A DNA stretch of 64,000 nt from Owenia fusiformis (taxonomy: Eukaryota). The translations under genes were made by a program, and so were the position numbers. Below are positions 9,878 through 59,400 of this stretch, piece after piece. The DNA lies in assembly GCA_903813345.2 (NCBI GenBank), contig CAIIXF020000001.1, positions 11,594,001-11,658,000 on the forward strand, read 5' to 3'. Within the stretch, counting starts at the first letter, position 1, and each line of letters opens with the position of its first letter. Below the pieces are notes generated by a model. That model was not told the DNA's origin and did not search any database. It saw only the letters and a list, made by a program, of their open reading frames with translations.

Positions 9878-9880
9878 TCA

Positions 9881-26038: not shown

Positions 26039-26349
26039 GTTGGTACCTATTTCATATTGATTCTGTACTTTCATGGTTGGTACTTATTATATTGATTCAT
26101 GGTTGGTACCTATTTCATACTTGGTAATCCAATGGTTGGTACCTATTTAATATTGATTCTGTACTTCAATGGTTGGTTTCTATTTCATACTGATCAAGTC
26201 ATCAATATTATATGTATCATTTTCTCTTACAGGAGTGTGCAAAAGGTTGGTCTTGTATATAGTCCTAAGTTATTTCTGTTAAAATATGTATACTACTTTT
26301 GAAAAACCTGCTTTATTTCAGCAAGACATTTCTGTTTGGCATTGAAGGA

Positions 26350-28962: not shown

Positions 28963-28971
28963 CTCTATATA

Positions 28972-31769: not shown

Positions 31770-32016
31770 TATATAACTACCAGTTTACATATCAGTAAGT
31801 ACCAGACTACCAGTATACATTTCAGTAAGTGCCATTAAAATTATAAGTAATCACCATTACATAAACAAGTAAGTACCACTACTGATACCAACACATATAC
31901 ATATATACCACAAAATACCATACATACAAGTTAACATATACCACTTTTATAAATGTTATGTGATTTCATTTATATTCTAAAGTCAACATTTATATAAATT
32001 TCAATATTTACCACAG

Positions 32017-33051: not shown

Positions 33052-34980
33052 GTAATAAATATGTAATCTTATATCACAATGAAACATCTAAAACTTATAG
33101 TACTCCACCAGTGATTTGCTGATTTACTACTTGGCTCAATCAACCTCACTATAAACATACTATGATAATTCAATATTTGGGTTTATAATCACAGGATTAC
33201 TATTTTTCATCACATACAAGACAAAAAGTAGTTGCACACAGTGCGGCTCCCAAATTCTTCTCTAAAGTAGACTCACTCCGACTAGATAACATAATATCAT
33301 ACCTCGATGTTTTCGTCATGCATTTATCAATCGGATGTCAATACTAATACCATTTTGGAAACTGATGGCAATACTCAAGTCAAAATCTAAAGGCTTTCTG
33401 TTACTGACTGGTCTTCATAGTCAGAGAAAATACTTTTTATATTCATATAATACTCCTACATGGTTAGAAAGCAATGAGTGTTTGTTTTTGAAGGAAAAGG
33501 TAAAGAAATATTTCTGGATTGGAAGCTCATATGATGCATTGCGAGTGTCAAATGGTTACTGATACACTTCGGTCAGATTAAACATTTATTATTAAGTTTT
33601 TAACTCATCATTAGAAGGTTAATCAAGAGCAGTAAGGGAATTAAAGGTTGGGAGTATGTGCACCTATTACACAAGACAAAATCGTATGAAATAACTTGCA
33701 ATGAGCTAGTTATGAAGCTTGTTATTATGGTCTTACTAGTGGTTATTATTGAGTAATGGTACAGGTATTCGATATGGTATTGCAGCTTACACTTAAGTAA
33801 TGGTACACGTATCCTTGGATTTTAGGCCCGAATACCGAGGTTTATTTTTTTAATTATCGTGTATTATTATTTTGTGTTAATATTAGTTAACCATCTAACT
33901 ATTGGCATGATATGATAACCTTGTTATATTAATATAGCGCATAGGCGTAGCCAGGGGGATACGATGAATGCGATCGCACCCCCCCCCCCTCCATAACCAA
34001 TGAAAGTAGAACCATTAGATAGAAGAAAAAAGTCTCAAAATGCTTTTTATTTGAAGCTTCTAGCTCGATTTTGAACGAAGTTGCACCAATTTTTGTAAAA
34101 TTCAAAACAAATCATCAAAAACATTTTTTTATGCCACGATCGCCCCCCCCCCCCCCTCCCCCCGACTGAAAGCTGGCTACGCCACTGTAACGTGTAATCA
34201 ATACGCTACATTTTGTATGTTCAATTTGTATACTAAAAACTGTTATTAATAACAGTTTGTAGATTAAAGATCCTTATTTAAAGACAACGTCGTCTTTATG
34301 AATTATTTAAGACATCAGTATTCTCAGAAATTGATTATCCGAAGCTAATACCAAGTTCTGACCAGCAGACGAACAATTTCAGACGTGGGCTAAGTTTGTT
34401 TATTTAACGGTTAGNNNNNNNNNNNNNNNNNNNNNNNNNNNNNNNNNNNNNNNNNNNNNNNNNNNNNNNNNNNNNNNNNNNNNNNNNNNNNNNNNNNNNN
34501 NNNNNNNNNNNNNNNNNNNNNNNNNNNNNNNNNNNNNNNNNNNNNNNNNNNNNNNNNNNNNNNNNNNNNNNNNNNNNNNNNNNNNNNNNNNNNNNNNNNN
34601 NNNNNNNNNNNNNNNNNNNNNNNNNNNNNNNNNNNNNNNNNNNNNNNNNNNNNNNNNNNNNNNNNNNNNNNNNNNNNNNNNNNNNNNNNNNNNNNNNNNN
34701 NNNNNNNNNNNNNNNNNNNNNNNNNNNNNNNNNNNNNNNNNNNNNNNNNNNNNNNNNNNNNNNNNNNNNNNNNNNNNNNNNNNNNNNNNNNNNNNNNNNN
34801 NNNNNNNNNNNNNNNNNNNNNNNNNNNNNNNNNNNNNNNNNNNNNNNNNNNNNNNNNNNNNNNNNNNNNNNNNNNNNNNNNNNNNNNNNNNNNNNNNNNN
34901 NNNNNNNNNNNNNNAAAAATGTTACAAAAACCGGGTACCAGTATAAAATCAACAGTATAGTATGATATTGGTATTATACA

Positions 34981-36657
34981 TTATCGATAGATGAGTAGTT
35001 TTTTATATGAAGATTTGAAAATATTTAGAGTGGAGCATTTTTTAATATCATGTGGTAGAGCATTCCAAAGATTAGGACCCAGATAGCGAAGGGAAAGTTT
35101 AGAGCATTTAGGGATATGAAAATAATGCAATTGTCTTGTGTAATGATGATGAATATTAATGTTGATATCAAACAAGTCTTGAAATAGATTTTTTGGAAGA
35201 CTGGGGTGCTTATTAAAGATTTTGTACATGAACTGACCAGTACAATATCTGTTGACATCAAAAATATTTAATATTCTAAGATCTTTAAATAGGGGAGCGG
35301 AGTGAGAAAGTCTATCCTTATTTAAAGCTAGCCTTAAGAATTGTTTCTGCAGTTTATGTAGACGATCATAAAATGATTTAAATGTGTTACCCCAGATTAT
35401 GTTGCAATAATTTAATTGAGAGTGTATCAATGAGTAGTAAATTGTTTTGAAACTGTCTATTTGAAGTAGATTTTTAATGTGATAAAGAGAACCAATGACG
35501 CGAGAAATCTTTGTTTCAACAGATTTTATGTGCTCTTTAAATTTCAAGTTTTTATCAATAATAATTCCAAGAAAGTCAATTTTTTCCCGGAAATTTATGT
35601 TCTCATTGCGTATTTTAAGATTCAGATTTGTTTGATTTTTTTGGGGTCCAAATAGAATAGCATTGGTTTTGCCAATATTAAGTGAAAGTTTGTTTGCTTT
35701 TATCCAGTCATCTATTGAATTCAAGTTAGCATTAGTTCTAGTCATAAGTTCATTTAAATCATAATCACTATCAAGAAGATTGGTGTCATCAGCAAACATA
35801 ATAAATTTTAGATTAGGGGCAACAAAAGGCAGATCATTTATGTAAAGAATAAATAATAGTGGTCCAAGTACCGAGCCCTGCGGAACACCACAATTTAGAG
35901 ATGATTGTTTAGATTCATAATTGTTAATGGTGACATATTGTTTGCGGTCTTTTAAATAACTTACAAACCAGGACTTAGCTATTCCTCTGATGCCATAATA
36001 TTCAAGTTTTTGTATCAAAATGTCATGATTAATTGTGTCAAAGGCCTTGGAAAAATCTAATGTTATGCCAATGCTCATTTTCCCCAAATCAGTTGATTTT
36101 CAAATTTGTTCAATGAAATATAAAATGGCCATGTAGGTAGAGTTGAATTTCTGAAATCCAAATTGATAAGTAAAAATAATTTCAAAATGTTCTAAAAAAC
36201 CAGTGAGTTTGGCGTGCATGAGCTTTTCTAACAATTTAGAAAATACAGATAAAACTGAAATTGGTCTATAGTTCGAAGGATTTGTAGTGACACCTTTTTT
36301 AAATACAGGTGTTACTTTGGCCAATTTGAGGGCGTCTGGGAAAATACCAGATTTAAAAGATAAGTTAAATATATACAAGAGTGGATCAATTAAAAACTGT
36401 CTTGCAGACTTAATAAGTGATGGTAGAATCCCATCAGGTCCAGGCGAGGAAGATTTTAGAAGACACATTTCTAATTCAAGCTCAGTTTTTGAGGTCTTTT
36501 TGAGATAAATAGATGATTGAACTTTTTGAGCTCTTGCTAGGTATTCATTAAAGCATTTTTGGGATTTTGGAATCTCCTTGGCTAGATTTTTACCAATATT
36601 GGTAAAAAAATTATTAAATCCATTGGAAATGATTTCATGATCTGTTGTTTCCAACAG
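34981..36657 (-). mobile_element. 5'-truncated CR1/L2-group LINE, RT with one in-frame stop at 36100-36102
   Basis: SPGPDGI, NYRPISVL, QFGF, LDFSKAFD, GVPQGSVLGP, FADD, HSAPLF. Confidence 0.93.
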
Positions 36658-36958
36658 TATAGAGTTTAGTGGACATACTGTATAGAGTTTAGTGGACATA
36701 CTGTAGTATATATAGTCTTCAACTTATTGGCATTGGTGTTCGGTGGTCGGTGTTCAGCTTTCAGCGTCTGTAACCAATGGCAGATAGTGACATTTTGCAC
36801 GTTAATGCCTATTCTAATCTGACCATTATGAGCTTTTCGACTCAATATTATATAAATAAAGGTGTCTATGTGGACTGACTTGTTGTAAATGGTAGTTGAG
36901 TGCAATATGTTCAACTCTGTAAAAGTCAATGTTAATAATCGCCATGGTTCTTTTGTAG

Positions 36959-38963: not shown

Positions 38964-39597
38964 GTAGGCTTTCCATACATACATACAAGTGCATGGACAC
39001 ATAATGCTAGGCAACTCAAATCACAAAATTGAAATTTTTATGTTGGAACAGGTTTAAGTCATAATAGAATAGTCAACTTTTCCCTATAGAAGATTCANNN
39101 NNNNNNNNNNNNNNNNNNNNNNNNNNNNNNNNNNNNNNNNNNNNNNNNNNNNNNNNNNNNNNNNNNNNNNNNNNNNNNNNNNNNNNNNNNNNNNNNNNNN
39201 NNNNNNNNNNNNNNNNNNNNNNNNNNNNNNNNNNNNNNNNNNNNNNNNNNNNNNNNNNNNNNNNNNNNNNNNNNNNNNNNNNNNNNNNNNNNNNNNNNNN
39301 NNNNNNNNNNNNNNNNNNNNNNNNNNNNNNNNNNNNNNNNNNNNNNNNNNNNNNNNNNNNNNNNNNNNNNNNNNNNNNNNNNNNNNNNNNNNNNNNNNNN
39401 NNNNNNNNNNNNNNNNNNNNNNNNNNNNNNNNNNNNNNNNNNNNNNNNNNNNNNNNNNNNNNNNNNNNNNNNNNNNNNNNNNNNNNNNNNNNNNNNNNNN
39501 NNNNNNNNNNNNNNNNNNNNNNNNNNNNNNNNNNNNNNNNNNNNNNNNNNNNNNNNNNNNNNNNNNNNNNNNNNNNNNNNNNNNNNNNNNNNNNNNN

Positions 39598-40696: not shown

Positions 40697-43600
40697 TGTT
40701 ATTACATGCTGGATTGTATAAAGGGATGCATCGAATAAATGAATAGATAACACAAAAACTTTTACATTGACATTTCTTGTATTTCTTCAGGAAGTAGATC
40801 TGAGTTCTGCACATGCGCAGATACAATCATGATAGGACTATTGCTCAATACAACTAGAATTGAAACTAGGATAACAATGTTGCTTATCCTCAAGTTACAA
40901 CATTCCCCTTCACTTAGTTTTACATCTCAGTTAAGTTTAAATGAAAACATGAGTGTTTCTCAATGTCTTTAGAATAAAATCAGTAATCTGATTTCCACAT
41001 AATGTAAAACGTAAATATAGCTTAGTGCTAACAAATGTCATTATGTCAGGGTTTCCCTTACATTATTAAATGTTCGAATCAGTGACCAATGTTTGATCAT
41101 TATAGAGAATGTTCCTCTAGTTTATAATAGAATGACATGTATACAGTCTTGGAAACAAAATACACTTTCTTTCCAGTTTATTCACATTGTTTTTCACCAG
41201 TATGTATGCAGTCTGATGAAAGTAGAAAAATCAGTTCATTCCTTTCTCCAGTATGTACATTACAAATTGTTTCCTCAAGTAAATAGATGATCAACACACT
41301 GATCAATCTATGACATATGTGGGGTACTTATGTGATCAACACACTGATCTACATGTACCTATAATATATCACTGCAGGTGTAATTTGGTGATCAACACAC
41401 TGATCCACCATAAAATAGCATCTATATGGTTAATCGGTCAGGGGGTTTTCTGACTCTTGTTGAACGTCTCACATTTGCAGGTTCAGGCACTGGAGATGAT
41501 GGGCTGCCATCCACTGGTGGGGAAGTTACGTGTCCAGAAATGGATCCCTTTTTAGGATTTGATAACCCGAGACCTCCCGGAACACCTGGGAAGGAGCTTG
41601 GTTGTGCTTTTGGCACTGGAACGGAGCTTTTCACAGGTGGGATTACCACTGGTGCGAAACTCGGTTCCGGAACAGACACTGGTGTGAAGCTTGCTTTAGA
41701 TACAGGGATTGGCCCATAATCAACATCAACTGGAATTAAGTTTGGCTGTTGAATTTCCTGAGTTTCCCCATTTTCCCCCTCACTAAATTTCAACCCTATG
41801 AGGTGATCAATGTGGACATACCTGACTTTACCCTGAACTTTGACAAGACAGGTAAGAGGACCACTGATTTTGACAATTTTTCCTCTAATCCACTTTTCAA
41901 CACCCCGTTTGTGATCTCTAACTAGCACTGGTTGATACAATTGCAAACTACGTGCACTGTTTTTTTGGAACTTGCCAAACTTTGATTTGCTTGTTTTGCT
42001 TCCATAGTTTGGGGCAAATTTGGCTTAAGTAGTGACAACCGTGTACGTGGCTCACGTTTTAAGAACAATTCGGCAGGCGTCTTGCCTGTTATAGAATGAG
42101 GAGTGTTCCGATATGCCATTAAAAAGCTTGAAAGCCGGTGTGACATTGAGCGATTTGTTTTGTTGTCTACAACTTGCTTTAACAAAGCTTTTTTCACCGT
42201 CTGAATGGTTCTTTCTGCAGTACCGTTTGAGGAAGGATGGTACGCAGGTACTAATGTTTGTTTTACCCCGTTTTCACGGAGAAAATTTGAAAACTCTTCT
42301 GAAGTATACTGTGGCCCATTATCTGACACATGTTCTTCCGCTAGACCATATGCGGCAAATAATTTGCGCAAAACTTCGATAGTTTTCTCTGATATGATGT
42401 TTGACATTTGAAATGCCTCCACCCATTTTGAGTACACGTCCATTATAAACAAAAACGACGCTTTGTCTTTTTCCGCAAAATTGGTGTGGATGCGTTGCCA
42501 AACGCGAGTTGGATAAGGCCAAGGCATGAGAGGAGCTGATCTGGGAGCATTACGTGTTGTAAGACATGTCTGGCAAGTACTCACAAGTTTTTCAATTGAT
42601 TCATCCATTTTTGGCCACCATACATGACCTCTAGCGAGTGCTTTCATTCGAGAAATACCCGGATGTTCAATATGTAATTCATTGAGAATAGTTTCACGAA
42701 ATGCCGGAGGAACAATAACTCGCAAACCCCATAATACACAACCTTGGTCTACCGCTAATTCATCTTTTTGCAAGAAGTAAGGCCGTAAATTTTCATCTGG
42801 GCAAAAGTTCGGCCAACCACTGAGCGTATACTGATACACTTGATTCAATGTAGTATCTTTCTTGGTTTGTTCCGCAATATCCCGAGCTTTGACAGGAATA
42901 GATTCAATTTCCGAGATTTTGAAAATTGCATTTTCTGTAGACTCATTAGCTGGAATTTCTAATGGAAGGCGCGATAGGTAATCTGCATTGCCATGGTCAC
43001 CAGAACTGCGGAATATCACTTTGTACTTATAGGCAGACAACAAAAGTGCCCAACGCTGTAATCGAGCGGAAACCATCACAGGAATGCCTGTTTTGGGACC
43101 AAATATTTTAGTCAAAGGTTTATGATCCGTGATGATTGTGAATTCTCGGCCATATAAGTACTGATGGAACTTCCTGACGGCATGAACAATTGATAGAGCC
43201 TCTTTTTCAATTTGACTTTAGTTCACTTCACTTGAGGTTAATTTTCGCGAACACGTGCTAATTATTCGTTCTTCACCCTCGACTTTATGTGAGATAATAC
43301 TTCCTATTCCCACCAAAGATGCATCGCACGATAAGTACACTTCCTTTGAGGAGTCGTAATGAATTAACACACTGTCCGATGTACATAAGTTCTTACACTT
43401 GTTGAAAGCGCTCTGACATTGAACAGTCCACTTCAACTCGGCATCTTTCTGGAGAAGGAGGTGAACTGGATGTAAGACTGTAGACAAGTCAACATTTTCT
43501 TTTGTCATGAACTTCGCGTAAAATTGGACTAGACCCAAAAACGCTTGTAAATCTTTGAGATTTTTAGGACGCGGACAGTCGCGAATTGCCTTGAGTTTAT

Positions 43601-45414
43601 CTTCTGTGGGTCTGATTCCGTCACTATCTACAATATGCCCTAAGAAGATTTGAGGAATTCACATTTACTCAGTTTTGCACGAACACCATGTTTTTCAAGT
43701 ACTGAGAGCACCTTTTCTAAGGTTTTCAAGTGAACGGAAACAGAGCCTGACGCAATGCAAATGTCATCGAGAAAAACGCATACGCCAGGTATTCCGCGTA
43801 ACATTGATTCCATTACTCTCTGAAAAATAGATGGCGCTGCTGAAACCCCAAACTGTAAACGCTGCGGTTCAAAAAGACCCTTGTGAGTACTTAGCATCAA
43901 ATAGTGTTTTGACTCTTCATCTAACTGTAATTGCAAATATGCTTGAGCGAGGTCAATTTTGCTATACACTTTGCCACCTGAAAAAGTTGTGAACAAATCT
44001 TGGGCAGTTGGAAGGGGGTATTGCTCTTCATGTAGAGCTTGGTTAATACTGACCTTGTAATCTCCACACATGCGAATACTACCATCGGTCTTTTGAATAT
44101 TAACTAGGGGAGAACCCCATTCCGAATAGTCAACTGGTTTGAGCACACCTTGTTCAGTTAATCTATCGAGTTCTTTTTCAACTACCGATCTCATAGCATA
44201 GGCTAACTTGCGCGGTTTATGAAATATTGGAGTAGCATTTTCTTTGATGCGCAAATGTGCAGTGTAGTTCTTAATTGTACCACCCTTTGTAAATACAGCT
44301 TCATGCCTAGAGAGAACTGACTTGAGTTTTATATTCTCATTTGTCACCCCTTCAGATTCGACAGAATCTACTTTGTCCCTGGGAGAACATTTACCCTTTG
44401 AGGACCCCCCTTGATGAGCAGATAAAATTGAACCCCAATCCAATTTAATTGACTTGAGCCAATTTTTCCCAACCAAAGCAGGATTGTTTCCCTTAACTAC
44501 CAATAGAGGGAGTTTGGTGGACACCTGATTATATAACTGGGGCCTCCACTTGACCCACCGATGGAATGGCACCACCACCATAGGCCTTCACCTTGCGAGA
44601 GCATCGTTGTAAGGGTAGATGTGGAAGATGTTTCCGGTAAAACACCTCTGACACAACGGATACATCAGCACCAGTGTCAATAGCCATCTGTATTGGTTGG
44701 TCATCAATGTGAAGGTTCACGATGAACGAATCGTCCTGGCGACCCTGTGCATTTTGCGTATATAGTAGATATAGATTCAAATCATCTTTATCAGAGTCAA
44801 AGTCCTCATTTACAGCTTTCAAGTTTTTCACAGTCTTGCGAAATGGTTTACGGGCCTTCGATTTCTGTTTACCCTTACCAGATTTTTTCTTGAAACAAGC
44901 CTGTTCAATGTGGCCTGTTTTCAAACAAAAACGACATTTGGAGTCTTTAAAGCGACAAGTGTTGGCTGCATGCGTTCCATCACATCAAAAACATGTTGTA
45001 GATGTGACTGCGTTAATGTCTGTTGAAGTTGCGGGTACATGAAATGTTTTTATGTTCCTCTGTGCCATTTCCATGCCAATAGCGGTGGTATAAGCCGTAT
45101 GAAAAGTCAAACCCCTCTCAGTTAGCAACTTTCGCTGAATTGCCTCACTTTGTAAGCCACAAACGAAGCGGTCCCTCAGATCCTCTTGTAAGAATTCACC
45201 AAATTCACAAGTCTTGGATAAATTCCTCAACACAACTGAAAATTCACTCACCGATTCACTCTTCAGTTGGTCCCTTTTATGAAACTTAAATCGTTCAGCT
45301 ATTATCAGAGGGGTTGGTTCATAGTAATCCTTCAGAATGGTGCTTAGAGCATCCAATTCCTTCACATCTGGATTGACTGGATGGCATAAGTCCGCCAAAA
45401 CGGCATAAGGCTCT
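40697..45414 (-). mobile_element. Decayed Ty3/Gypsy (Mag-like) LTR retrotransposon; 5' end lost in gap
   Basis: gag with CCHC knuckles, protease DTGA, RT FLDD, RNase H CDAS, integrase HPG...C..C / SDNGPQ; several stops and frameshifts; PPT aagtgaaggggaa then TG...CA 3' LTR about 40697-40902. Confidence 0.95.
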
Positions 45415-47642
45415 NNNNNNNNNNNNNNNNNNNNNNNNNNNNNNNNNNNNNNNNNNNNNNNNNNNNNNNNNNNNNNNNNNNNNNNNNNNNNNNNNNNNNN
45501 NNNNNNNNNNNNNNNNNNNNNNNNNNNNNNNNNNNNNNNNNNNNNNNNNNNNNNNNNNNNNNNNNNNNNNNNNNNNNNNNNNNNNNNNNNNNNNNNNNNN
45601 NNNNNNNNNNNNNNNNNNNNNNNNNNNNNNNNNNNNNNNNNNNNNNNNNNNNNNNNNNNNNNNNNNNNNNNNNNNNNNNNNNNNNNNNNNNNNNNNNNNN
45701 NNNNNNNNNNNNNNNNNNNNNNNNNNNNNNNNNNNNNNNNNNNNNNNNNNNNNNNNNNNNNNNNNNNNNNNNNNNNNNNNNNNNNNNNNNNNNNNNNNNN
45801 NNNNNNNNNNNNNNNNNNNNNNNNNNNNNNNNNNNNNNNNNNNNNNNNNNNNNNNNNNNNNNNNNNNNNNNNNNNNNNNNNNNNNNNNNNNNNNNNNNNN
45901 NNNNNNNNNNNNNNTATGCAAAGCAGTAAGTACCAGCAAACATGATAGTTATGACAAGTATGCATAGAAGTAAGTGCCAGTACAGTTATTGCCATTATAC
46001 ATATCAGGAAGAGTCAAAATACATGTCAGTTAGTACCAGTATATGTATACCAGTACAAGTACCAGTACCAGTAAGGACTGATATGCACAGAAGTACAGTA
46101 AGTACCAGTTAACATTATATTTAAAACCAGTATGCATACCACTACAGTGTTTTCATTAGGGTCTGAAAAAAGTCGGTCCCCGAGACCCCACATTATAAAA
46201 ATCTGGGTCCGGATCAGAAAAATTAGTAGTATGACTAAAATGTTAAGTTTCAATTCAGTTTATCATATCTTCCTTCTTGTCGAACTGGGTTGAATGATTC
46301 TAATGTTAGACTATGATTTGGGATATTTGAGGTTTGTTTTCCTTTTGACTTATATACATGTAGGCTAGTACATGTACTACTCTTAGATGGGTTTTTTCAA
46401 ACATTTTCCAGTCTTTATCATTTCTGTACTATGCCATATGAGCTCATATTAATTACAACTTATTGTAGTCATGTGATCAGACCAAACTAAGCAGTAAGTA
46501 CCATTTTAAACATATACCTGTCACTTGTAAACTGGTAAATATACCAGTAAGTACTTAGTAAACTAACAGTAAGTACCATTAAACATATCAGTAAACACCA
46601 GTACACATATCAGTAAGTAATAATATATGAAGGTCAATCAAAGGTCAAAACTGAGGTCAGATTTGAGTTCCTGAGACCTTGTAGATGATTTTAAAAAAAA
46701 GTTTGGTCAATTTAGAAAAAGTTGAAATTTGGTCGTCAAAAATTTCAAAATATGACCTTTTTTCAATTTTTGAGTTTTAATATTTCAAAACTGGTACAAA
46801 ATTTTAATGGATAGTCAATATGTGTAGAAACTTAAGAGGAATATATATCCTGACTTTCATCAAAAAATATTGATTTGTAGTCATCAACTTTGAGAAACTT
46901 AGAAAACACAGTTTGTGATTTAGTGCGATGACCTTGACCTTTGACCTTGCAAATTTGACTTTTTAGACCTCAATAGGTCTAAAAGATTTGAGAAACTTAA
47001 AAAAAACTTTGATTTGACCCAGATTTTGACCTTTGACCTTGACCTAGATAAAAGTTTCTTCCCCACCAAGTTCAGCCAAGGTTCCTGGAAGGTGAGTGTA
47101 GGAGATGGTTGAAGGGTAGTTGGAAGTAGGAGAAAAGGTGTTAGGAAAATAAAGAATAAATAAATAAAGAATAATATCTATAAAATTGGGGCCTCCTAAT
47201 AAAAGAAAGTGCCACAATACATACCAGTAAGTACCATCATATATACACATAACTAAAAGTTAACATATCAGTAAGTACCAGCATACATATAAGTAAACAG
47301 TACACATACCAGTAAATACCAGACGTATTATATCTAATAAAAGAAAGTGCCAATATACATACTAGTAAGTACCAGTAAACATACCAGAGGCAGAAAGTAC
47401 TATCATATACTAGTAGTTTACATATCAGTAAGTACCAGACTACCAGTATACATTTCAGTAAGTGCCATTGAACATATAAGTAATCACCATTACATAAACA
47501 AGTGCCACTACTGATACTAACACATATATATATATACCACAAAATACCATATATACAAGTTTACATATACCACTTTTATAAATGTTATGTGATATCATTT
47601 ATATTCTAAAGTCAACATTTATATTTTCAATATTTACCACAG

Positions 47643-50600
47643 AGACAATAAAACAGGAGAGGCTATAGGATTCCTGCATGATGTTATCAAAGGAGTGTGT
47701 GGCATCTGTGGCAGGAAATGTGACACGGTGTTCGTTGCAGAACACCTTGGCCGCTGCTTTGACCCAGAGAAAACAATGGGTGAAGGTATGTTATTCTATC
47801 ATCTGTCTAAACTTCATATGGTTGCTATAACCAATCATAAAACATTAAAGAGACTCAGTCCCATAGCCAGGATTTGCCAGTGCAAAGGGGGGGGGGGTCA
47901 CTTTTTGAAAAATTTCTGGAGGGGTCCACTTGTGACAATTTTGGTCCAAAAGTGGCCAAAATCACTTAAAATGTGCTCAGAATGGTGAAAAAATGCATGA
48001 TTTTGAAAGATTTTTTGGCCAGGGGGGTTCGCTCGAACCCATCGAACCCCCCTGGCTACAGGCCTGAGACTCTATAACATAGGAAAGCACAATCAAGACC
48101 TCTCGGGACATTTTTGCAGACTGAGTTTCACCACATACTTACCGACGAAGAAGTTCCAAATCCCCTGCTTTCAGTGTTAATTTTGCGATTGTACTGGCTG
48201 ATCTAATCATTTTCAAGGAAATCATTTTCACGGAGTTCTCAAGATATATAGTGGAAACTGTCCTATTTATTGACAGAGTTGGAGATTAAAGAAAAAAGAT
48301 ATTAGCCAAAATGGCTCGAAAATTTCAAAATTATAAGCCGGATTTACTGTAGGCCACAAGCGAAGATGTAGATGGAGCAAGCTACATTTGAGGGGGATCA
48401 GGGGGAGGGGCTATACATCATTTGTAATTATATTTGTTTGCTTGTTCATGTACCTTAGTTCATTTTTTACCTGTAATTAGCCCTCTCAATCTTCAGTTAT
48501 TTTCAGAATGTAAAATTGTATGAATAATCAAGTGGTAAAAACTTCATGTTATTCATTGTATTGATGTCTGTATTGTTAATGTTAATTATTTTTCAATTAT
48601 TCATGTGTGATCTGATTTATTTAATAAATTGGACAATTTTGATGTTAATTACAATAAGATAGCATCCAATGGACTAGATGCATTAGATTCACTTTTTGCT
48701 TTCTGTAAAATTAATAGACTTATAGTCAACACCCTTAAGACAAAGGTACTGATTTTTAACTCTAAATATTCAGATCCTTTCACTTTTAATAATCAAGAAA
48801 TTGAACGTGTAAATAAATATAAATATCTCGGTGTTATTCTTACTGATAACAATAAATTTGATATTAACACTGCTTATCTTAAAGAACAATCACGAAAGGC
48901 AATATTCAAAATCAAACAACAGTATAAGAAATTCAATGATGTACCGCCCGATGTTGCTCTTCACCTTTTTGATTCATTAGTCAGTCCAATACTTTGTTAC
49001 GGGTGTGAGATTTGGTATGATAAGAAACAGATGAAATCTATTGAAACATTGCATTTGTCCTTTTTAAAATCTATTCTAGGAGTCAAAACTCAAACAGCTA
49101 ATCCTGCAGTATATGGCGACCTCGGTAGATTTCCCTTATCTATCAAAATTGAATTATCTTTGATAAAATACTGGTTAAGACTTATAAAACTACCAGAATC
49201 TAATATTTTAAATCAAGCTTATTTATATGGTCAAGAAAAACATGAATGAGGGTTTAAATCATGGTCTGAAAAAGTTTATGATATTCTTCACAAATGTGAA
49301 CTAACAGAGTATTGGGATGACCAAAGTCAAAATACAGACAACTTAGTAAACTTGGTTGACAAGAAACTAAAGAATGCATTTATAAATAATTGGAGAAATG
49401 ATATTTTACAATATCCTATATTAAGAACATATAAGCTATTTAAGAAAGATTTTGAATTAGAACCATATTTGAAACTAGATAATAAAAAAATATAGATTAG
49501 CAATAGGTAGATTTAGGTTAAGTTCACATCGGTTAAAAATAGAATCTGGAAGACACATAAAACCCAAACCTAAACCAGTTAATGAAAGGTTGTGTAATAC
49601 TGTATATGTAAATGTGTGGAGGATGAATTTCATTTTATCATAAATTGTACAAAGCATTCTCAACACAGGCAAATATTTTTCAGTAAAATTCCTGAAATAT
49701 TACCAACATTTGACTTGAATAGTAACGATTTATTTATAAATATAATTTCTAATGATAATATCATCTTCCAACGATATCTTGGTAAATTTATATACCATTC
49801 ATTTAACAATTTAGAATAATCAGCAAAATTTGTGCATCACACTTAAAATATTTTGCCTTTCTTGTATGCTTTCTGTAAAAAATATATCAAATCATGTATA
49901 TTTTTATAAAGATGTAGTTTTAGTAAGTAGTTTAGTAGTAGATAGTAGTTTTAGTGAGTAGTTTATGACTAATGTAATCATGTTATGATACAATATGTCA
50001 ATAAAAGTTATATATATGCAAGTAGAAATAATCTTGATTTATGTCGTTAAATATCGATATATATTTCTAGATGTAGTCGGGGAGATTCCCCATAGACCCC
50101 ATGTTGTGAAATCACAAAAAGTGAAATATTTTTTCTTGTGTTGGACAGATAACATTTTCTTTTACTGAACATATTTTAATTTGTATAACTATCAGATACA
50201 TAAGGGTAATATGAAAAGTGAACCACTAAAAATGATAAATATTCAAGTCTAAGGGAATTTTGTAATACCCTGCCATGTTATTTCCCCCGAATCAGCCACC
50301 CGGTGGCGAAACTGTAACCACCTACTCGCATCTGAGTAATTGATAAGTAGACTTTATACATTCATTTGGATTAATAAGTACTTTTGGTGCAAATGTATGT
50401 CCTATCAACTTTATTCGTCACATTGCCTTCCTTTATCAATAATTTTGTTTTTTCTTCGCAAATGGTGAATGGCAACTGTTATTTGGAACTCTGTATACTG
50501 ATGTATTCCACTTTACAGATTTTACTGTATGTCCTCTAAATAAAATATCAATAATCATAAGAATTAACTGTTTAAGGTCTAGATAATCGGCACTGTGATG

Positions 50601-53600
50601 CTTGTATTGGCTGGGCAAGTACTAGTCTTAGGAGAAACACATATTCATTCACTGGGGCAATTGTGGAACCTACAAGGGCTCAAGTGTATGTGAAGAGAGG
50701 CTCTGGGATAACTACAGTGGCGCAGCTACAAGGAAAAACAATAGGTAGTAAATATGTAATCTTATATCACAAATGAAATGTGATTTGCTGATTTACTACT
50801 TGGCTCAATCAACCTCACTATAAACATACTATGATAATTTGGTATTTGGGTTATCACAGGATTACAATTTTTCATCACATACAGGACAAAAAGTAGTTGC
50901 ACACAGTGCGGCTCCCAAATTCTCCTGGAGGAGATGTCTCAAATGTCAAAATACCCAGGGATTTTTGAAAGATGAATATATGGGCAATAATAGGGTATTT
51001 CATGATTTCCCTCTTTAACTCATTCGCTACGAAGGACATGATATGACGTCATAAAGCACATACGTTGACTACTAAGGATGTGATATCACGTCCAAGCACA
51101 AACTCAATGTATTTTTTGGAATCTTGTAACCATGACAACTTATAAAATGGGACTTTTTTATGATACTGAAAAAGTATATCATATGCTTTAAAATGATATA
51201 TAACACTATATATGTATGCCAATGTATACACTACATATATTATTTCAGAGGTATCATATATGGCAATTTTCAACAAGGCATTAACATGACAAAATGTCAC
51301 CACCTAGTTAGGTCATTGAAGGTCAAATGTCAAATCTTAAGTCAAACCTAAAGTCAGATTTGAATTTCTGAGAACACGTAGATGATTTTGAAAACATTTT
51401 TTAGTCAATTTGAAGCAAGTTGAAAAAAGACCTTATTGACCTTGAGAAGGTCATTGAAGGTCAAAGGTCAAATCTAAAGTCAGATTTGAACTTCTGAGAA
51501 CTTGTAAAGTCAAATTTGAACTTCTGAAAAGATGTAGATGATTTTGATTTGGTCAATTTGAAGCAAGTTGAAAACAGACCTTTTTGACCTTTTTTTACCT
51601 TGAGAAGGTCATTAAAGGTCAAATGTCAAATCTAAAGTCAGATTTGAATTTTTGAGAGCATGTAGATGATTTTGAAAAAAAAATTAGTCGATTTGAAGCA
51701 AGTTGAAAAAAGACCTTTTTGACCTTTTTTGACCTTGAGAAGGTCATTGAAGGTCAAATGTCAAATCTAAAGTCAAATCTAAAGTCATATTTGAATTTCT
51801 GAGAACATGTAGATGATTTTGAAAAAAAAATTTAGTCAATTTGAAGCAAGATGAAAAAATACCTTTTTTGACATTGAGAAGGTCATTGAAGGTCAAATGT
51901 CAAATCTAAATTCAGATTTGAATTTCTGAGAACATGTAGATGATTTTGTTCCTTGATTTATTGCACGTTGGTGACGTCGCACCTTTTTTGATAGATCTCA
52001 TATCTTGGAAATATATATTGGTTCAAAAATATATTCTGCCATACTTTGTGCTTATTATAAAATTAGCAATTCAATTTAAACTTTATCTTAGAAATATAAA
52101 TCTTCCAGATTTGTTGAATTTTCTAGCAGAAATCTGCTACTCCTCCCCCCCCTCCATCCATTTTTTCCAATCGCAGGGCATGAAAAACATATGCCACATT
52201 CTTTCTAATAGATGCACATACTCAAATAAACGTACACCTGACCTTTCCATGAGACTCTGCCAACTTGAGTATCAAAAATCAAGAAAAAAAGAAAAAATTC
52301 AAAAAAGTAATTAGGCGATAATAGGGTACATTATTTTTATGTCACCACCAAAAGTGGTGACATATTGTTTATGTCACCACCAAAAGTGGTGATTTATGTC
52401 ACCACCAAAAGTGGTGACATATTGTTATGGTCTCCGTTTTTTGACATTTGACATTTGACCTTCAAATCTGACTTTAGATTTGACATTTGACCTTCAATGA
52501 CCTTCTCAAGGTCAAAAAAGGTCTGTTTTCAACTTGCTTCAAATTGACTAAATTTTTTTTTAAAAATCATCTACATGTTCTCAGAAATTCAAATCTGACT
52601 TAAGATTTGACTTAAGATTTGACATTTGACCTTCAATGACCTTCTCAAGGTCAAAAAAGGTCAAAAAGGTCTGTTTTCAACTTGCTTCAAATTGACTAAA
52701 AAAAATTTTCAAAATCATCTACGTGTTCTCAGAAATTCAAATCTGACTTTAGATTTGACTTAAGATTTGACATTTGACCTTCAATGACCTTCTCAAAGTC
52801 AAAAAAGGTCAAAAAGGTCTTTTTTCAACTTGCTGACTGATTTTGTTCCTTGATTTATTGCACGTTGGTGACGTCGCACCTTTTTTGATAGATCTCATAT
52901 CTTGGAAATATATATTGGTTCAAAAATATATTCTGCCATACTTTGTGCTTATTATAAAATTAGCAATTCAATTTAAACTTTATCTTAGAAATATAAATCT
53001 TCCAGATTTGTTGAATTTTCTAGCAGAAATCTGCTACTCCTCCCCCCCCTCCATCCATTTTTTCCAATCGCAGGGCATGAAAAACATATGCCACATTCTT
53101 TCTAATAGATGCACATACTCAAATAAACGTACACCTGACCTTTCCATGAGACTCTGCCAACTTGAGTATCAAAAATCAAGAAAAAAAGAAAAAATTCAAA
53201 AAAGTAATTAGGCGATAATAGGGTACATTATTTTTATGTCACCACCAAAAGTGGTGACATATTGTTTATGTCACCACCAAAAGTGGTGATTTATGTCACC
53301 ACCAAAAGTGGTGACATATTGTTATGGTCTCCGTTTTTTTTGCGACGGCGGTTGGTGGTTGGTGGTTGGAGGTTGGCGTCCGGCATCTGTAACAATTTCT
53401 TACAACTTCCTATAACTTAACAAATACTGTTTAGACTGACTTCAATTTTTTTCTAAATCATCTACATGTTCTCAGAAGTTCAAATCTGATTTTAGATTTG
53501 ACATTTGACCTTCAATGACCTTCTCAAGGTCAAAAAGGTCTTTTTTCAACTTGCTTCACATTGACTAATTCTTTTTTCAAAATCATCTACATGTTCTCAG

Positions 53601-55674
53601 AAATTCAAATCTGACTTTAGATTTGACATTTGACCTTCAAATCTGACTTTAGATTTGACATTTGACCTTCAATGACCTTCTCAAGGTCAAAAAAGGTCAA
53701 AAAGGTCTGTTTTCAACTTGCTAAGATTTGAATTTCTGAGAACATGTAGATGATTTAAAAAAAAAAATTTAGTCAATTTGAAGCAAGTTGAAAAAAGACC
53801 TTTTTGACCTTTTTTGACTTTGAGAAGGTCATTGAAGGTCAAATGTCAAATCTTAAGTCAAATCTAAAGTCAGATTTGAATTTCTGAGAACACGTAGATG
53901 ATTTTGAAAATTTTTTTTAGTCAATTTGAAGCAAGTTGAAAACAGACCTTTTTGACCTTTTTTGACCTTGAGAAGGTCATTGAAGGTCAAATGTCAAATC
54001 TTAAGTCAAATCTTAAGTCAGATTTGAATTTCTGAGAACATGTAGATGATTTTTAAAAAAAAATTTAGTCAATTTGAAGCAAGTTGAAAACAGACCTTTT
54101 TTGACCTTGAGAAGGTCATTGAAGGTCAAATGTCAAATCTAAAGTCAGATTTGAAGGTCAAATGTCAAATGTCAAAAAACGGAGACCATAACAATATGTC
54201 ACCACTTTTGGTGGTGACATAAATCACCACTTTTGGTGGTGACATAAACAATATGTCACCACTTTTGGTGGTGACATAAAAATAATGTACCCTATTATCG
54301 CCTAATTACTTTTTTGAATTTTTTCTTTTTTTCTTGATTTTTGATACTCAAGTTGGCAGAGTCTCATGGAAAGGTCAGGTGTACGTTTATTTGAGTATGT
54401 GCATCTATTAGAAAGAATGTGGCATATGTTTTTCATGCCCTGCGGTTGGAAAAAATGGATGGAGGGGGGGGGAGGAGTAGCAGATTTCTGCTAGAAAATT
54501 CAACAAATCTGGAAGATTTATATTTCTAAGATAAAGTTTAAATTGAATTGCTAATTTTATAATAAGCACAAAGTATGGCAGAATATATTTTTGAACCAAT
54601 ATATATTTCCAAGATATGAGATCTATCAAAAAAGGTGCGACGTCACCAACGTGCAATAAATCAAGGAACAATGGTCTATATGACCTGTAATAAATAGTTT
54701 TAAGTCATGTTATTATCACAAAATTAATGTCAATGCTGGTTTTTAAGAATAAATTTCTAAGTGACAAGTGGGAGAAATTAACATAAATTCATGTATTTGA
54801 AAATAAACTCAGTAACTCAGCAACAACTGGATGTTATATCCAATGAAGAGTGAAAAATATGGACATTTGGAGTCATTGAAAATAAAGTTAAGTACATGTA
54901 ACATGTGTAACATGTCTTATAGACACATCACTCCTCCCCCCTCTGTTCACTCCCCCTCCCCTCCGTTCAGTTGTAATTATTTTCGATTATTTTTATATAA
55001 TGCACAGAAACTTACAATAGCAATTACAATAATTTTGTGATAATGTCACTTACAACTATTTATTAAAGGTTTTATAGACCTCAGTTGCTTGATTTATAGC
55101 AAAAACGTTTGCAAATTGGTAGAGTTGCGCCTTATTCAACAGATCTCACTAATAAAGTTCTAATATAACAATATATTTGTATCAATTCATATTTTACAGG
55201 CTTCCGAAAATTTTGGTTTATGGACAAATTTTGTTACTCAGCAAGTGGAATTTATGGAAGTAATTTTATGGCTAAAGAAATTGCTATAACCAGAGGATGG
55301 GTTGATGTAATGGACCAGCTGAGAGTTGGGAATGTAAGTACATTTGAAAGTAGTCAAAATACCAGTCACAAAAAACAACAATATTAATTTTCACAGAATT
55401 TTGTTTTCTATAAAACTCTCTAAAACTATGTATCCAATCTATGTAATATACCCCCTCCCTCCTTAGATTGATGCTGCCTTTTTACCAGAAGGGGAAAAAG
55501 GAACAGAAGAGTTTGAAGCTATTGGGGACTCTATTGATTGCTCATTTGGCCGCAAAGTGGGCCTGATGCAAAGAAAGGATGTCGCTACAGAATGGTTTGG
55601 AGACTGTCTCCTCAAGTTTAAACAACATGAATTTCAGGGAAAGAATGTATGGCAAATGCTATGTGACCATTGGG
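47643..55674 (+). CDS. Family-3 solute-binding-protein-like gene, copy 2 (exons 47643-47785, 50577-50744, 55200-55333, 55467-55674)
   Basis: Four GT-AG exons of 143, 168, 134 and 208 nt splice in frame: DNKTGEAIGFLHDVIKGVCGICG...LQGKTIG|FRKFW...MDQLRVGN|IDAAFLP...VGLMQRKD...WQMLCDHWG. Confidence 0.8.
47856..48066. mobile_element. MITE with 5-bp TSD AGACT
   Basis: cagtcccatagccagg / cctggctacaggcctg; empty site visible in paralog at about 32224 (agactctataac). Confidence 0.85.
48660..50010 (+). mobile_element. 5'-truncated decayed LINE (RTE-X-like 3' end)
   Basis: VNTLKTKVL, YKYLGV, ILCYGCEIW, VYGDLGRFPL, RLSSHRLKIESGRH, VEDEFHFIINC; in-frame stop at 49247; absent from copy-1 intron. Confidence 0.88.
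51310..54671. repeat. TGACCTT-family repeat array with near-identical direct and inverted duplications
   Basis: About 51946-52442 recurs at about 52842-53340; about 51946-52833 is the reverse complement of about 53785-54671. Confidence 0.9.
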
Positions 55675-55836
55675 GTAAATCATTAACTCAGACTAAAACT
55701 TTTAAATCAATGTCAGTCCATAAGAACAGCCTCATTCAAATTAAGCTCTGAACAGTTGTACTGAATAATACGTGAACACATATATCACACATTAGGTATT
55801 GTCTAATTACAGTATTTAGTCACACATATACATATA

Positions 55837-56464
55837 CAGGGTGGTCAAAAAAAGTCAACCCTTGCAATAAGCTATATCTCAAGTACTACTGGCATTATAG
55901 GCTAATGTTCTCACATGTTTTAGAGGAAGGTCTAAAGTTTTTGTGGGTACTATAAAGGTCACCCAGTCTTAAATCTAGCAGAAGTTACATGGCATCAACA
56001 GACATGCTGGATTTATGGATGATGTCCTCAATCCATGCCCCATGGTTCTGGATGACTACTGCCCATTATATAATATTATTACCACCTTGCAGGGCCTGTT
56101 CTAGGGGTTTTAGTACTAGTTGAGAAGGCATTTAAATTGCTATATTGACGTGAGCAATATTGTGTCGGGCGTTAATGACTTTAGTCGGGCAATAATGACA
56201 TTATCCGCCCGGCTATGTTTCCCGGGAAAAGTGATATCGTTCAGTGCGTAAGATTTTCTATTTCAAATTTGCTATTTCAGCCCTGGTCATTAACGGTGGT
56301 ATTAATAGTAATAACGTCATTTCTGCAGGCAAAATAGTGAAATATTGGACCAATATTTCACTATATTGCCCTTTGAAATGACGTTATTGTACTATTAGCC
56401 CATTGATGTGGTTAATAACTGAGATATAGCTTGTTGCAAGGGTTCACTTTTTTGGACCATCCTG
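55837..56464. mobile_element. Tc1/mariner MITE
   Basis: TA|CAGGGTGGTCAAAAAAAGT...ACTTTTTTGGACCATCCTG|TA. Confidence 0.85.
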
Positions 56465-59400
56465 TACATATCACAACGAGAAACACTATATAATAAACAT
56501 CAATACGACGAGATAATAGATTTATTATCCAAATTGAATAATAACTGATAAGATCAGGTACTGTTGAATAACATTCTGCCCGGGATTTGTTATTAATCAT
56601 ATAGAAATGTCTTATCCGAACAGCTTACATGTACGTATTATCCGTTGCGGCCATTAACAATTTTACATATCTAATTAGCTAAGTAAATAAACATGCGTCG
56701 ACACAGTCGCAGTTGACTATGAAAAGTTCAATCATCAATCTTATTTTCATTTTCATGATTTAAAGATTTATTATGTTTAAAAAAGAAAATGTTTGATTTT
56801 TAAATTCAACCTTTAATTCTTATTATCAAGAACGCGCATGCAAATTCGCCAACCATGTACATTGTTTGCAGTCTGCGCAATTTAATGTAAATCATTGTAT
56901 ATTTTTCGATATACTGTAATACTATTCATTATTTGTAAAATTGAACCGAATATAATCTAAAATTAATCAGCTTTAAATACATTATATGTCATAAAAGTTG
57001 CCTTAAAACAATACAATTCGATCGTGCGTTTGTAAATGCTCTAAAGCCCCGCTAGTATATGAACGAATCCTAAATAGAAATGAGTAAAATTCGTTCCCAT
57101 TAGTGTGTACACGTTCTACACCGAGACTTCTCCTTTAAATCAAATCAGTCCACTAGTATGAGTTAAGAATGGACAGAGGGACGGATGGCTTCATTCAATG
57201 GGATAATTAAGATATTTCAAAACCAGTGTCATTCTTCTATGCATACATCACTCCAATCATAACATAAAACAAGCTGTTTATTTTAAAACTATTCTTTACG
57301 AATTTATGATAAGTGTATAATGTTCAATCATACAAATCGCAGTCAGTGATTGTTCTCCACACTCACCCCTCCCCCTTCCTGACATGAACTATTTTGTAAA
57401 ACCATTGACAGTGTGGAAAGGATTCTTACACTCTAGTGTCAAGGGGGGGGGGGCAGTTACAGAAATATACAAGGCGATGGTTCAAATTGGACAATTTTCA
57501 AAACTGCTCAACATGGTGAAAACTTCACGTTTTTAAAGAATGCTTGCCCGGCGAGTGGTTTGCTCTGGATTGCGAGAGAACAAAATCTTTGAGTTAGGAT
57601 TTTTCCTAATACTATCATTAATCTAAACAACTTTTTAAACCGTCTCTGACTACATATAATGCCAATTAATACCATCATTGTGTTGACAGGATTAAATATG
57701 ATATCTATGGAATTATAATTTAATGAACTCAATAGTCTAAATGATAATAAGTTCATAATTTAGTCTTGGCTGACTAGTCTTGCATCATCAGAGTTGGATT
57801 GCAAATACCTCCCTAAATCAAATATTTAAAATTTACAAATTTACTAGTGTACGGGGTGGGGAAACAAGTCTCTATCCAAACACTAAAGTTTAAAAAGAAG
57901 ACTATAGTGTCCCGTGAATTCATTATAATTATCTTAGACAATAGTGAAGCGGTACAATCATTGGAGTGTTAATTAATCGGAATGCAAGTTTGATTTAAAA
58001 TGACTCCTTTGGATCAAATATTTAAATTCTACTAGAATGCGGGGAGTGGAAACAAGTCTCCATTCGAGCAATAAATATCAAAAGAAAGATTTCAGTACCC
58101 CTTAACTTCACTCCCGGACTTCACTATTCACCACCACCCCTCCCCCTTCCACAAGTATCCCTTATGACCCCAGAATGTTCGTTTCTGTGCCCCCCCCCCT
58201 GTCCATGGCCAGTAAGTAATCTATGTATATATTGGCTCCCTCCCAAAGGTGGGAAAACCAGATGCAGGCATAGACATTGACAAGGTGAGGGGATTTAAAT
58301 ATAAAAATAGTCTTGTTTTTGGCTCCGACTTATATATTTTGGCACTCTTTAACGAAGCCGGTTTAAGGAATGAGAGGCAGAAATAGTTCCTAGAAATAAG
58401 ATGGCCTCATCGCGATAGCCGCGACCCCTTTGTCTTTATCCTTCCACAATCGGCAGATAAGAGTGGCTCTGGCATACCAGAATGAGTTGGCCTGTCTTTA
58501 CTGTAATCAAGATATGGTACCTAACCGCAGTTATTTTGGTTTTATAACGGGGATATTGCTCGAGCTTGAATAACAAATAAAAGGCATGTTCTTATTTCTG
58601 TATTCTGACCTTTAATTGTGTATTAAGTTGAGCTGCACGCCAAACGTTAAGATTGTTAAAACGCTTAAAATAAAACTTTATTCCTCTCAATTTACATAAA
58701 AATTAAACAGATTAGATTCGAATCTCAGTCACACCAGCACCACTGGTCAAAGGAAGTACAAATATCTATATTAATCAAATGTCTGAGAATTTGATAACTG
58801 TCTGGGATCCAATGTTAATTTTATTGAAGCAAACTAAGAAAAGTATAAAGATGAATTTTAAACGTTTAGAGGGAAAAGTCAAATATGCATTGTAACCCTA
58901 AAAATAATTCATTAAAGTGTCGTACACATTTTATAACATTTATATAAATAAAACAAATAAAGCACAACCCTAATGCCCGATAATGAATTCATATCGGCGC
59001 TAAACGGCCCTTGCAATAAAAACGCATCGAAGCAGGGAATGCTTGGAAAATTCTTCCGAGACTGACTTTTGTTATTTCAAAATTGAAATATGCCTAATTC
59101 CTATGAACACGCGATCTTTTTCCCTGGGTTTTACTCTTTTTTAGATTTCCTAGAAAAATTGAAACGTTCAGTCGTAAAACTTTAGATCAAAAGACTAATT
59201 AGGCACCTGATTGCGAAAGTTTGATTGCATTTCGATCGCCGGGATTTTACAAACGTATTGTTTAGTAGCGATCGTGTTCTTGGGATCTTGATAACTTCCT
59301 ATTTTAAGTTTTGGGTTGAAAGCAATGAGTATGTCGGACTTTCTCAAGTCTACATGATGAAACAATATCCCTTTATATTAGTCCAATCGGAATTTGCATA

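Follow-up and report, generated by a model that had tools for sequence, protein, structure and literature searches.

The 64,000-nt window of Owenia fusiformis DNA analysed here (assembly GCA_903813345.2, contig CAIIXF020000001.1, positions 11,594,001 to 11,658,000) holds four exons at 47643–55674 that probably encode most of a type-II periplasmic binding protein (PBP) domain of the SBP_bac_3 type, the class of the family-3 solute-binding proteins (SBPs). These exons, A to D, would belong to an Owenia family of small, cysteine-rich and secreted-looking binders whose closest relatives are bacterial polar-amino-acid-binding proteins. The copy they form, called the target below, is probably a partial tandem copy within that family. 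Coordinates are those of the window.

Four exons join into one open frame

An initial annotation made from the DNA letters had proposed an intron-containing animal gene with four in-phase GT-AG exons and a product of about 217 aa. The coordinates and splice sites of all four exons were confirmed, and matches to paralogues fell on the same exons:

47643–47785, + strand: exon A (acceptor cag, donor gtatgt); end of strand 1, helix 1 and strand 2 of lobe 1
50577–50744, + strand: exon B (acceptor aag, donor gtagta); family-invariant block and Thr..Arg carboxylate-clamp motif
55200–55333, + strand: exon C (acceptor cag, donor gtaagt); lobe 2
55467–55674, + strand: exon D (acceptor tag, possible phase-1 donor g/gtaaat); return to lobe 1 and C-terminal helices

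AG/GT borders were canonical at all four exons, and all eight splice sites were intact, both by reading of the sequence and by script. Intron phase was 2 before exon A and 1 after it, followed by 1, 0 and, at the last donor, 1. Exon B has a second in-frame acceptor 6 nt downstream, at 50583. The joined exons gave 217 codons with no stop or frameshift, and an open join of this length with canonical borders is far above chance. When the window was searched by tblastn with P0002 and P0004, two paralogues from other loci, the matches were exactly exons A–D, in order and on the + strand (E of 1e-6 to 2e-13 per exon for P0002); exon A was matched by P0001 as well. The joined product aligned to the eight family proteins with zero gaps at all three exon junctions; it was 37–44% identical to full-length members (blastp E 1e-51 to 1e-62) and 82% identical to P0001, the product of a copy further upstream. 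Judging by these alignments, the target exons are real coding sequence of the Owenia SBP_bac_3-type family. The order of SBP_bac_3-type motifs had been read correctly in the initial annotation, and the cysteine enrichment it noted was borne out (10 Cys in 217 aa). The Kyte-Doolittle 19-residue window reached a maximum of 1.06 in the target (threshold 1.6).

The Owenia protein family

A phmmer search with exon B against 1.84 billion representatives returned four matches at E≤0.001: P0001 (247 aa, 78% identity to exon B), P0002 and P0004 (287 aa each) and P0003. The last of these was an unrelated repeat protein and was rejected. Word-indexed searches added three further Owenia proteins (P0005, P0007 and P0009) as well as P0006, from a 1089-bp Logan contig holding a whole 284-aa frame, and P0008, from a 2.1-kb JGI contig. 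The family as assembled here consists of eight database proteins, six of them from Owenia (P0001, P0002, P0004, P0005, P0007 and P0009) plus P0006 and P0008, together with the unannotated target. Owenia members lie on scaffolds of 62.2, 39.8 and 37.5 Mb, and UniProt already gives the Owenia paralogues the automatic name 'Solute-binding protein family 3/N-terminal domain-containing protein'. The animal origin of the gene was upheld by the upstream paralogue, which is annotated as an Owenia fusiformis protein, and by the presence of introns.

Full-length members have 278–291 aa and 10–11 Cys at conserved columns, and 8 or more Cys are conserved in the family. A hydrophobic 19-residue window (Kyte-Doolittle, >1.6) begins at residues 1–5 in five of the eight proteins, and no member has such a window beyond the N-terminus. 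Full-length paralogues aligned straight through the B/C junction, so that the lobes are contiguous. The contiguous lobes without a pore segment that had been proposed were thus recovered, both in this gapless alignment and in the lack of any later hydrophobic window. From these features the family proteins look secreted and seem joined to no channel, transporter or receptor part. The description of the product as stand-alone held in this respect, but it is not universal, because P0001 has an extra Cys-rich N-terminal module, P0005 is a fusion and P0008 has tandem domains.

Three of these architectures deserve a note of their own. In P0005, encoded on another scaffold, the binding domain is fused behind antistasin, pacifastin-inhibitor and VWC domains, which may reflect genuine domain shuffling or the fusion of gene models. 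In P0008 one uninterrupted frame encodes two successive binding domains, the one partial and the other full; the short linker that joins them starts directly behind the conserved C-terminal Cys. In several full-length members the hydrophobic N-terminal core leads straight into Gly-Cys and then into a linker rich in Pro, Gly and Asn; we presume a resemblance to bacterial lipoprotein signal sequences and treat it as a lead only.

The family is closest to bacterial binding proteins

The Pfam SBP_bac_3 model (PF00497, gathering score 26.4 bits) was passed by seven of the eight family proteins at 29.8–49.8 bits, and P0009 fell below it at 24.0 bits. The target is 37–44% identical to members that pass, and SBP_bac_3 membership would therefore extend to it by transitive homology. 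A profile of four members found 25 PDB sequences at E≤0.01, all of them bacterial or reconstructed-ancestral amino-acid-binding proteins. The best was STM4351 (E 3.9e-7), which aligned from end to end. With the same profile relaxed to E≤10, the first domain of an animal ionotropic glutamate receptor (iGluR) appeared at rank 45 with E 0.12. By this measure the family is nearer to bacterial binding proteins than to iGluR ligand domains. PF10613 (Lig_chan-Glu_bd, cut-off 30) matched only P0004 among the eight proteins scanned, below the cut-off (E 0.091, 13.3 bits), and the iGluR-type interruption of the domain by pore and transmembrane segments (S1-M1-M3-S2-M4) was found neither in the family nor in the target.

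Searches with single sequences pointed the same way. In a tblastn search of plasmids P0002 matched 12 records at 21–30% identity (best E 2e-6), ten of which are annotated as ABC-transporter or transporter substrate-binding proteins while two have no annotated feature. All NCBIfam matches, to LAO, cystine and ArtI/ArtJ models, scored far below their cut-offs (best 30.9 bits vs 256), so that the family is no orthologue of a named bacterial system. The clusters listed by ESM Atlas features were all bacterial SBP_bac_3 (score 0.92) with 153–167 shared features, 170 being said to be typical of true family members; we regard this as a lead only.

The fold was assessed with an AlphaFold2 model of the paralogue P0009, built from the eight-sequence alignment (mean pLDDT 73.7). 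In Foldseek, the rows shown among ranks 1–50 were all bacterial binding proteins or sensor domains (E ~1e-13), with a probability of 1.00 to LAO, GlnBP and ArgBP. The fold check proposed in the initial annotation thus pointed, for this model, to bacterial binding proteins. VIA-align placed LAO first (Z 16.3 over 214 residues, root-mean-square deviation (rmsd) 8.4) and gave Z 16.0 and rmsd 2.8 over 139 residues against lobe A of LAO alone; the bacterial GluR0 ranked 23rd (Z 14.1), and animal iGluRs first appeared at rank 31 (Z 13.5). The model of P0009, a paralogue of the target, thus has the two-lobed type-II PBP fold. On the profile and fold comparisons taken together, the family appears clearly nearer to bacterial binding proteins than to animal receptor domains.

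The ligand site is largely remodelled

E. coli ArgT and HisJ (NC_000913.3) were aligned with the family by MAFFT. The LAO numbering used agrees with the mutants named in PDB titles (D11, Y14, D30, F52, S69, S70, S72, R77, Q122 and D161). The alignment of ArgT and HisJ to the family is at ~20% identity, with a possible one-residue offset, and the positions below are to be read accordingly:

LAO R77: Arg in 8/9 family sequences including the target; lost in P0009
LAO Y14: Trp in 8/8
LAO S70: Trp
LAO L117: Arg
LAO S120: Trp or Tyr
LAO T121: Tyr or Phe
LAO Q122: Met
LAO D161: Pro in 8/8; next residue Asp, Glu or Asn

The Arg that pairs with LAO R77, which we take to be the clamp for the alpha-carboxylate, lies in exon B, and the hidden Markov model alignment to 2y7i gave the same pairing. 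Exon C has a family-specific aromatic/Met/Asp/Cys motif in place of the Ser-Thr-Gln loop of LAO, in which S120 and T121 are presumably ligand contact positions. D161, replaced by Pro, presumably binds the alpha-ammonium group. We infer that the carboxylate clamp survives and that the rest of the pocket has been rebuilt. A small molecule with a carboxylate group is the likely ligand, but it need not be one of the standard amino acids. The role as an amino-acid carrier that the initial annotation thought possible is not supported in detail, because most of the LAO contact positions are replaced.

An upstream copy reveals a segmental duplication

P0001, an unnamed Owenia fusiformis protein of 247 aa annotated as 'partial', mapped by tblastn to 24600–33050 of the window. 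Its exons are as follows:

24600–24734: first annotated exon; starts inside the satellite 23779–24652; doubtful
25474–25572, + strand: start/signal-like exon; tblastn 100% identity; putative signal peptide
25893–26039, + strand: Cys-rich module exon; 6 Cys, precedes the binding domain
26322–26372, + strand: first-strand exon; tblastn 26317–26373, borders from splice sites; donor gtaagt
32017–32159, + strand: exon A'; 92% nucleotide identity to exon A, same splice sites
32884–33051, + strand: exon B'; 89% nucleotide identity to exon B; the P0001 model stops here without a stop codon

The opening peptide of the first annotated exon recurs in five other units of the satellite repeat. This exon is probably an annotation artefact, and the true start of P0001 more likely lies in exon 25474–25572, whose hydrophobic segment was judged by eye and is below the window threshold of 1.6. 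The six-Cys module matched no Pfam family. The first-strand and signal exons that the initial annotation had left unplaced were therefore found for the upstream copy (26322–26372 and, putatively, 25474–25572) but not in the assembled sequence of the target. An 83-nt local duplication (26349–26431 and 26512–26594, 98% identical) has doubled the 3' part of the first-strand exon and its donor, giving a second potential donor 163 nt downstream of the first.

In blastn the two copies shared introns as well as exons, in five blocks:

26599–27967 vs 45915–47418: duplicated block, 84–90% identity
31771–32229 vs 47405–47856: duplicated block, 93% identity
32224–32340 vs 48067–48171: duplicated block, 80% identity
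32350–32409 vs 48598–48657: duplicated block, 95% identity
32419–33261 vs 50116–50926: duplicated block, 86% identity

Each copy has a private insertion, of ~3.8 kb at 27967–31771 in the upstream copy and of ~1.9 kb at 48171–50116 in the target. No sequence resembling a C' or D' exon was found elsewhere in the window. From the block comparison, the target is taken to be one of two tandem partial copies, ~10% diverged, of a recent segmental duplication that included introns. The target is unannotated, and its annotated neighbour P0001 is truncated at assembly gaps.

Both ends of the target copy may be incomplete

Two features bound the target copy:

45415–45914: assembly gap of 500 N, directly upstream of the duplicated block, which starts at 45915
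55675–55751, + strand: read-through tail of ORF (open reading frame) 55467–55751, used if the donor at 55674/55675 is not

No first-strand, signal or Cys-rich exon was present upstream of exon A in the assembled sequence of the window, and residues 1–143 of P0001 had no tblastn match between 39598 and 47640. The first-strand and earlier exons of the target are either inside the gap 45415–45914 or absent. The block alignments allowed two registers. One (26599–27068 to 45915–46370, 89.8% identity) would place the target's first-strand exon within the run of N; the other (26418–26509 to 46064–46155, 94.6%) predicts it at ~45963–46019, and it is absent there. The register is ambiguous because the region is full of short tandem repeats.

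At the 3' end, family proteins have a conserved Cys a few residues past the Trp that closes exon D. Reading through exon D instead adds 26 codons (the first begins at 55674) with no Cys, up to a TGA at 55749–55751. Candidate last exons, such as one at 56766, were AT-rich chance ORFs and were rejected as unsupported. A pair of 57-nt inverted repeats (55832–55888 and 56413–56469, 86% complementary) flanks ~520 nt just downstream of exon D, and 55832–56469 looks like a small foldback or an insertion resembling a miniature inverted-repeat transposable element in the 3' region.

Evidence against the proposed reading and alternative explanations

Several results count against a functional SBP_bac_3-type target. 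When exons A–D were scanned singly with Pfam, SBP_bac_3 was found in none of the four (one exon gave a match to Sgf11, sub-threshold and due to chance), and phmmer of single exons against the PDB found exon B only weakly ArtJ-like (E 0.56–0.77, at the right position) and nothing for exon D. Because single exons give no Pfam match, the assignment of the target depends on its full-length relatives; the family-3 type and the PF00497 check of the initial annotation succeeded at the level of the family and not at that of single exons. The fold evidence is moderate, as it comes from a paralogue at 40% identity with a model of moderate quality and an rmsd of 7–10 Å to most matches, which would probably reflect lobe opening. 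P0009, the protein modelled, is also the one that has lost the Arg at the R77 position, and of the mapped LAO contacts the family keeps none but R77 and the aromatic character of Y14. No convincing candidate for a last exon with the conserved C-terminal Cys was found downstream of exon D. The target has changes at two invariant or near-invariant family positions (Phe to Cys in the RHF motif, and acidic to Gly). Comparison of A+B with A'+B' showed 29 differences in 306 nucleotides and a ratio of nonsynonymous to synonymous substitution rates (dN/dS) of 1.03 (exon A 0.45, exon B 2.14), and exon identity between the copies (90.5%) was not above intron identity (80–95%). This duplicate pair shows no sign of purifying selection. 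None of the database proteins of 122–2000 aa contained exon D in a word-indexed search, which is weak evidence, since the search was limited to shared words and to that size range. The target copy may or may not be a working gene.

Three readings of the locus remain: a separate gene with an unassembled 5' end, one gene only, with C and D completing P0001 and one A–B pair skipped, and a decaying partial duplicate. If there were one gene, C and D would be the true 3' end of P0001, and A–B and A'–B' a duplicated exon pair of which each mRNA uses one. This would explain why the P0001 model is labelled partial and ends after B' without a stop, why C' and D' are missing from the window, and why exon A is preceded by no signal, Cys-rich or first-strand exon in assembled sequence. 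The phases permit the first-strand exon to join A or A', and B or B' to join C, and under the 94.6% register the breakpoint would fall inside an intron. The 89.8% register instead hides the first-strand exon in the gap, and the tandem repeats leave the choice between registers ambiguous. For B' to be spliced to C, an intron of ~22 kb would have to span three gaps and two retroelements; by our own reading of the sequences, an mRNA with both pairs would go out of frame and soon reach a stop; and exclusive use of exon pairs is unusual. We regard a single gene as rather unlikely. A non-functional partial duplicate, open only because it is young, is likewise doubtful in our judgement. It would fit the dN/dS value, the similar divergence of exons and introns, the missing 5' exons and terminal Cys, the two altered positions and the absence of exon D from the proteins searched. 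Yet 217 codons are open with every splice site intact, several variable positions of exon B are nearer to the family consensus in the target than in the annotated copy, diversifying selection on secreted proteins that evolve fast could also give a dN/dS of about 1 or higher, and the database absence is weak for the reasons of scope given above. Two divergent haplotypes assembled side by side could also produce a tandem arrangement; the duplicated block ends exactly at the gap edge 45915, the copies are separated by three 500-N gaps and by repeats, one copy has no 3' half and the other no 5' half, and inverted arms of 100% identity over 690 nt in the B–C intron suggest local assembly trouble. 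The blocks are, however, only 80–95% identical, far more divergence than is usual between alleles, each copy has its own large insertion and protein identity is 82%, and we consider such an artefact improbable.

Two other explanations concern the ancestry of the domain. Descent from an animal iGluR ligand domain that lost its channel part would be in line with the shared fold (Z 12–13.5 for animal iGluR ligand domains) and with the faint Lig_chan-Glu_bd match of P0004. The profile separates the two classes in the opposite direction (E 3.9e-7 for bacterial binding proteins vs 0.12 for the best animal iGluR), the PF10613 score is far below its cut-off of 30 and was seen in one of eight proteins, single-sequence tblastn already finds bacterial ABC binding proteins, and the lobes are contiguous. 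We judge this descent very unlikely. Bacterial contamination of the assembly, which the bacterial identity of the closest relatives outside the family might bring to mind, has a negligible probability and is excluded because the gene has introns. There are four GT-AG introns, G+C is 30–34% like the rest of the window, animal retrotransposons lie on both sides and inside intron 1, paralogues sit on scaffolds of 37–62 Mb, and signature-peptide matches were confirmed in 0 of 101 cases in prokaryote genomes and 0 of 103 in JGI contigs. We accordingly keep to a partial tandem copy within an SBP_bac_3-type Owenia family as the probable reading.

Repeats and retroelements in the window

The window has three 500-N gaps (34415–34914, 39098–39597 and 45415–45914) and a G+C of 24–41%. 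The satellite at 23779–24652 consists of a 136-bp unit in 6.5 copies (95% match) with a higher-order period of 400 bp (99%). Between the two copies lie a non-LTR reverse-transcriptase remnant and an element of the Ty3 type with long terminal repeats (LTR). The latter, Ty3/gypsy-like, at 41422–45414 on the − strand, has gag-protease, reverse transcriptase, RNase H and integrase over broken frames and runs into the gap at 45415. RVT_1 reverse-transcriptase remnants were found at 34981–36723 (−) and 13532–14977 (−), and 48611–49249 (+), in intron 1 of the target, is reverse-transcriptase-like by eye without a Pfam match. An ORF at 9018–9956 (−) had a sub-threshold match to Dam DNA adenine methyltransferase (E 4.8e-5, 23.5 bits vs 28.1) and adjoins an RNase H-like match inside an apparent retroelement.

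The B–C intron contains a nest of repeats at 51250–54700, with inverted arms of 690 nt that are 100% complementary (52145–52834 and 53782–54471), a 300-nt direct repeat of 100% identity (51941 and 52838) and several copies of a 239-nt unit. The nest is either a very young foldback element or a local misassembly.

Comparison with known systems

LAO/ArgT, HisJ, ArtJ, STM4351 and GlnH share with the Owenia family the two-lobe fold over the whole domain, with the contiguous order lobe 1 – lobe 2 – lobe 1, and LAO-type proteins also share the Thr..Arg clamp and an aromatic at the Y14 position. The Owenia family differs from bacterial SBPs in being encoded by a eukaryotic gene with introns, in having at least 8 conserved Cys and in an identity of only 21–30%, and it differs from LAO and HisJ in the replacement of D161 and S120/T121/Q122. 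No permease or ATPase genes were found beside the target within the window, where 14 of the 36 listed ORFs of at least 130 aa were scanned and most of the rest overlap N runs. Apart from the sub-threshold Dam match, the ORFs scanned gave retroelement domains only. The ligand domains of iGluRs, of ionotropic receptors and of GluR0 have the superfold in common with the family (Z 12–14), and iGluR ligand domains hold a carboxylate by the same Arg-based means. In contrast to the Owenia family, the iGluR domain is interrupted by transmembrane segments, and its profile match is marginal (E 0.12 or worse). Owenia paralogues share the Cys pattern and motifs with the target at 37–44% identity; the assembled sequence of the target is without their 5' exons and last conserved Cys. 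The acetylcholine-binding protein (AChBP) of molluscs and annelids offers a parallel in concept only, as a soluble, secreted ligand-binding domain that otherwise works in a membrane machine. It has an unrelated fold and ancestry and comes from an animal receptor family, whereas the Owenia family looks nearer to bacterial transport proteins.

Proposed function, origin and significance

A member of the family would be secreted and stabilised by disulphides. Between its two closing lobes it would grip a small ligand with a carboxylate group by means of the conserved Arg (LAO position R77) and the Trp (position Y14), and a remodelled, more aromatic pocket would set the specificity. Outside cells such a protein may carry or scavenge its ligand or serve as a perireceptor binder, and it would not be part of an ABC importer.

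The locus bears the marks of an animal gene in its spliceosomal introns, the flanking retrotransposons and, in P0005, the fusion to antistasin, pacifastin and VWC domains. Family signature peptides were looked for in 185,579 prokaryote species genomes and in JGI metagenome contigs, and 0 of 101 and 0 of 103 pattern matches, respectively, were confirmed. Such family-specific patterns would miss distant relatives; their absence from both sets means that neither contains a near-identical bacterial donor. No homologues from other named animals turned up in the phmmer and word-indexed searches, the latter of limited reach. Full-text literature searches found no paper on the Owenia SBP_bac_3-type family. 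The main text of a compendium of horizontal transfer in metazoans (PMC13342648) does not contain 'solute-binding', 'periplasmic' or 'Owenia', and its supplementary gene tables might list such genes. A bacterial origin by old horizontal acquisition followed by expansion is plausible from the sequence relationships, and unproven. More specifically, an annelid may have captured a bacterial binding-protein gene that gained introns and about four disulphides, spread to scaffolds of three different lengths, was shuffled with animal domains (antistasin, pacifastin and VWC) and into tandem arrays, and now yields a transporter-independent secreted binder with a remodelled pocket. We put this full course of events forward tentatively, as possible rather than probable.

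Binding proteins of the SBP class are the ancestors of animal glutamate receptor ligand domains, and free SBPs are seen as a tool of prokaryotes that goes with ABC importers. Such a protein in an early-branching annelid, apparently secreted, rich in disulphides and encoded by several genes with introns, would show plainly that a bacterial ligand sensor has been re-used outside transporters. If the capture took place, the gene would provide a free binding domain of the AChBP kind with bacterial ancestry, and its possible roles would include the capture of dissolved organic matter, chemosensory perireception and the interception of microbial metabolites at the surface or tube of the worm. The family would be a candidate case of horizontal gene transfer, followed by expansion and the shuffling of domains, and may serve as a scaffold for asking which small molecules a marine worm binds extracellularly.

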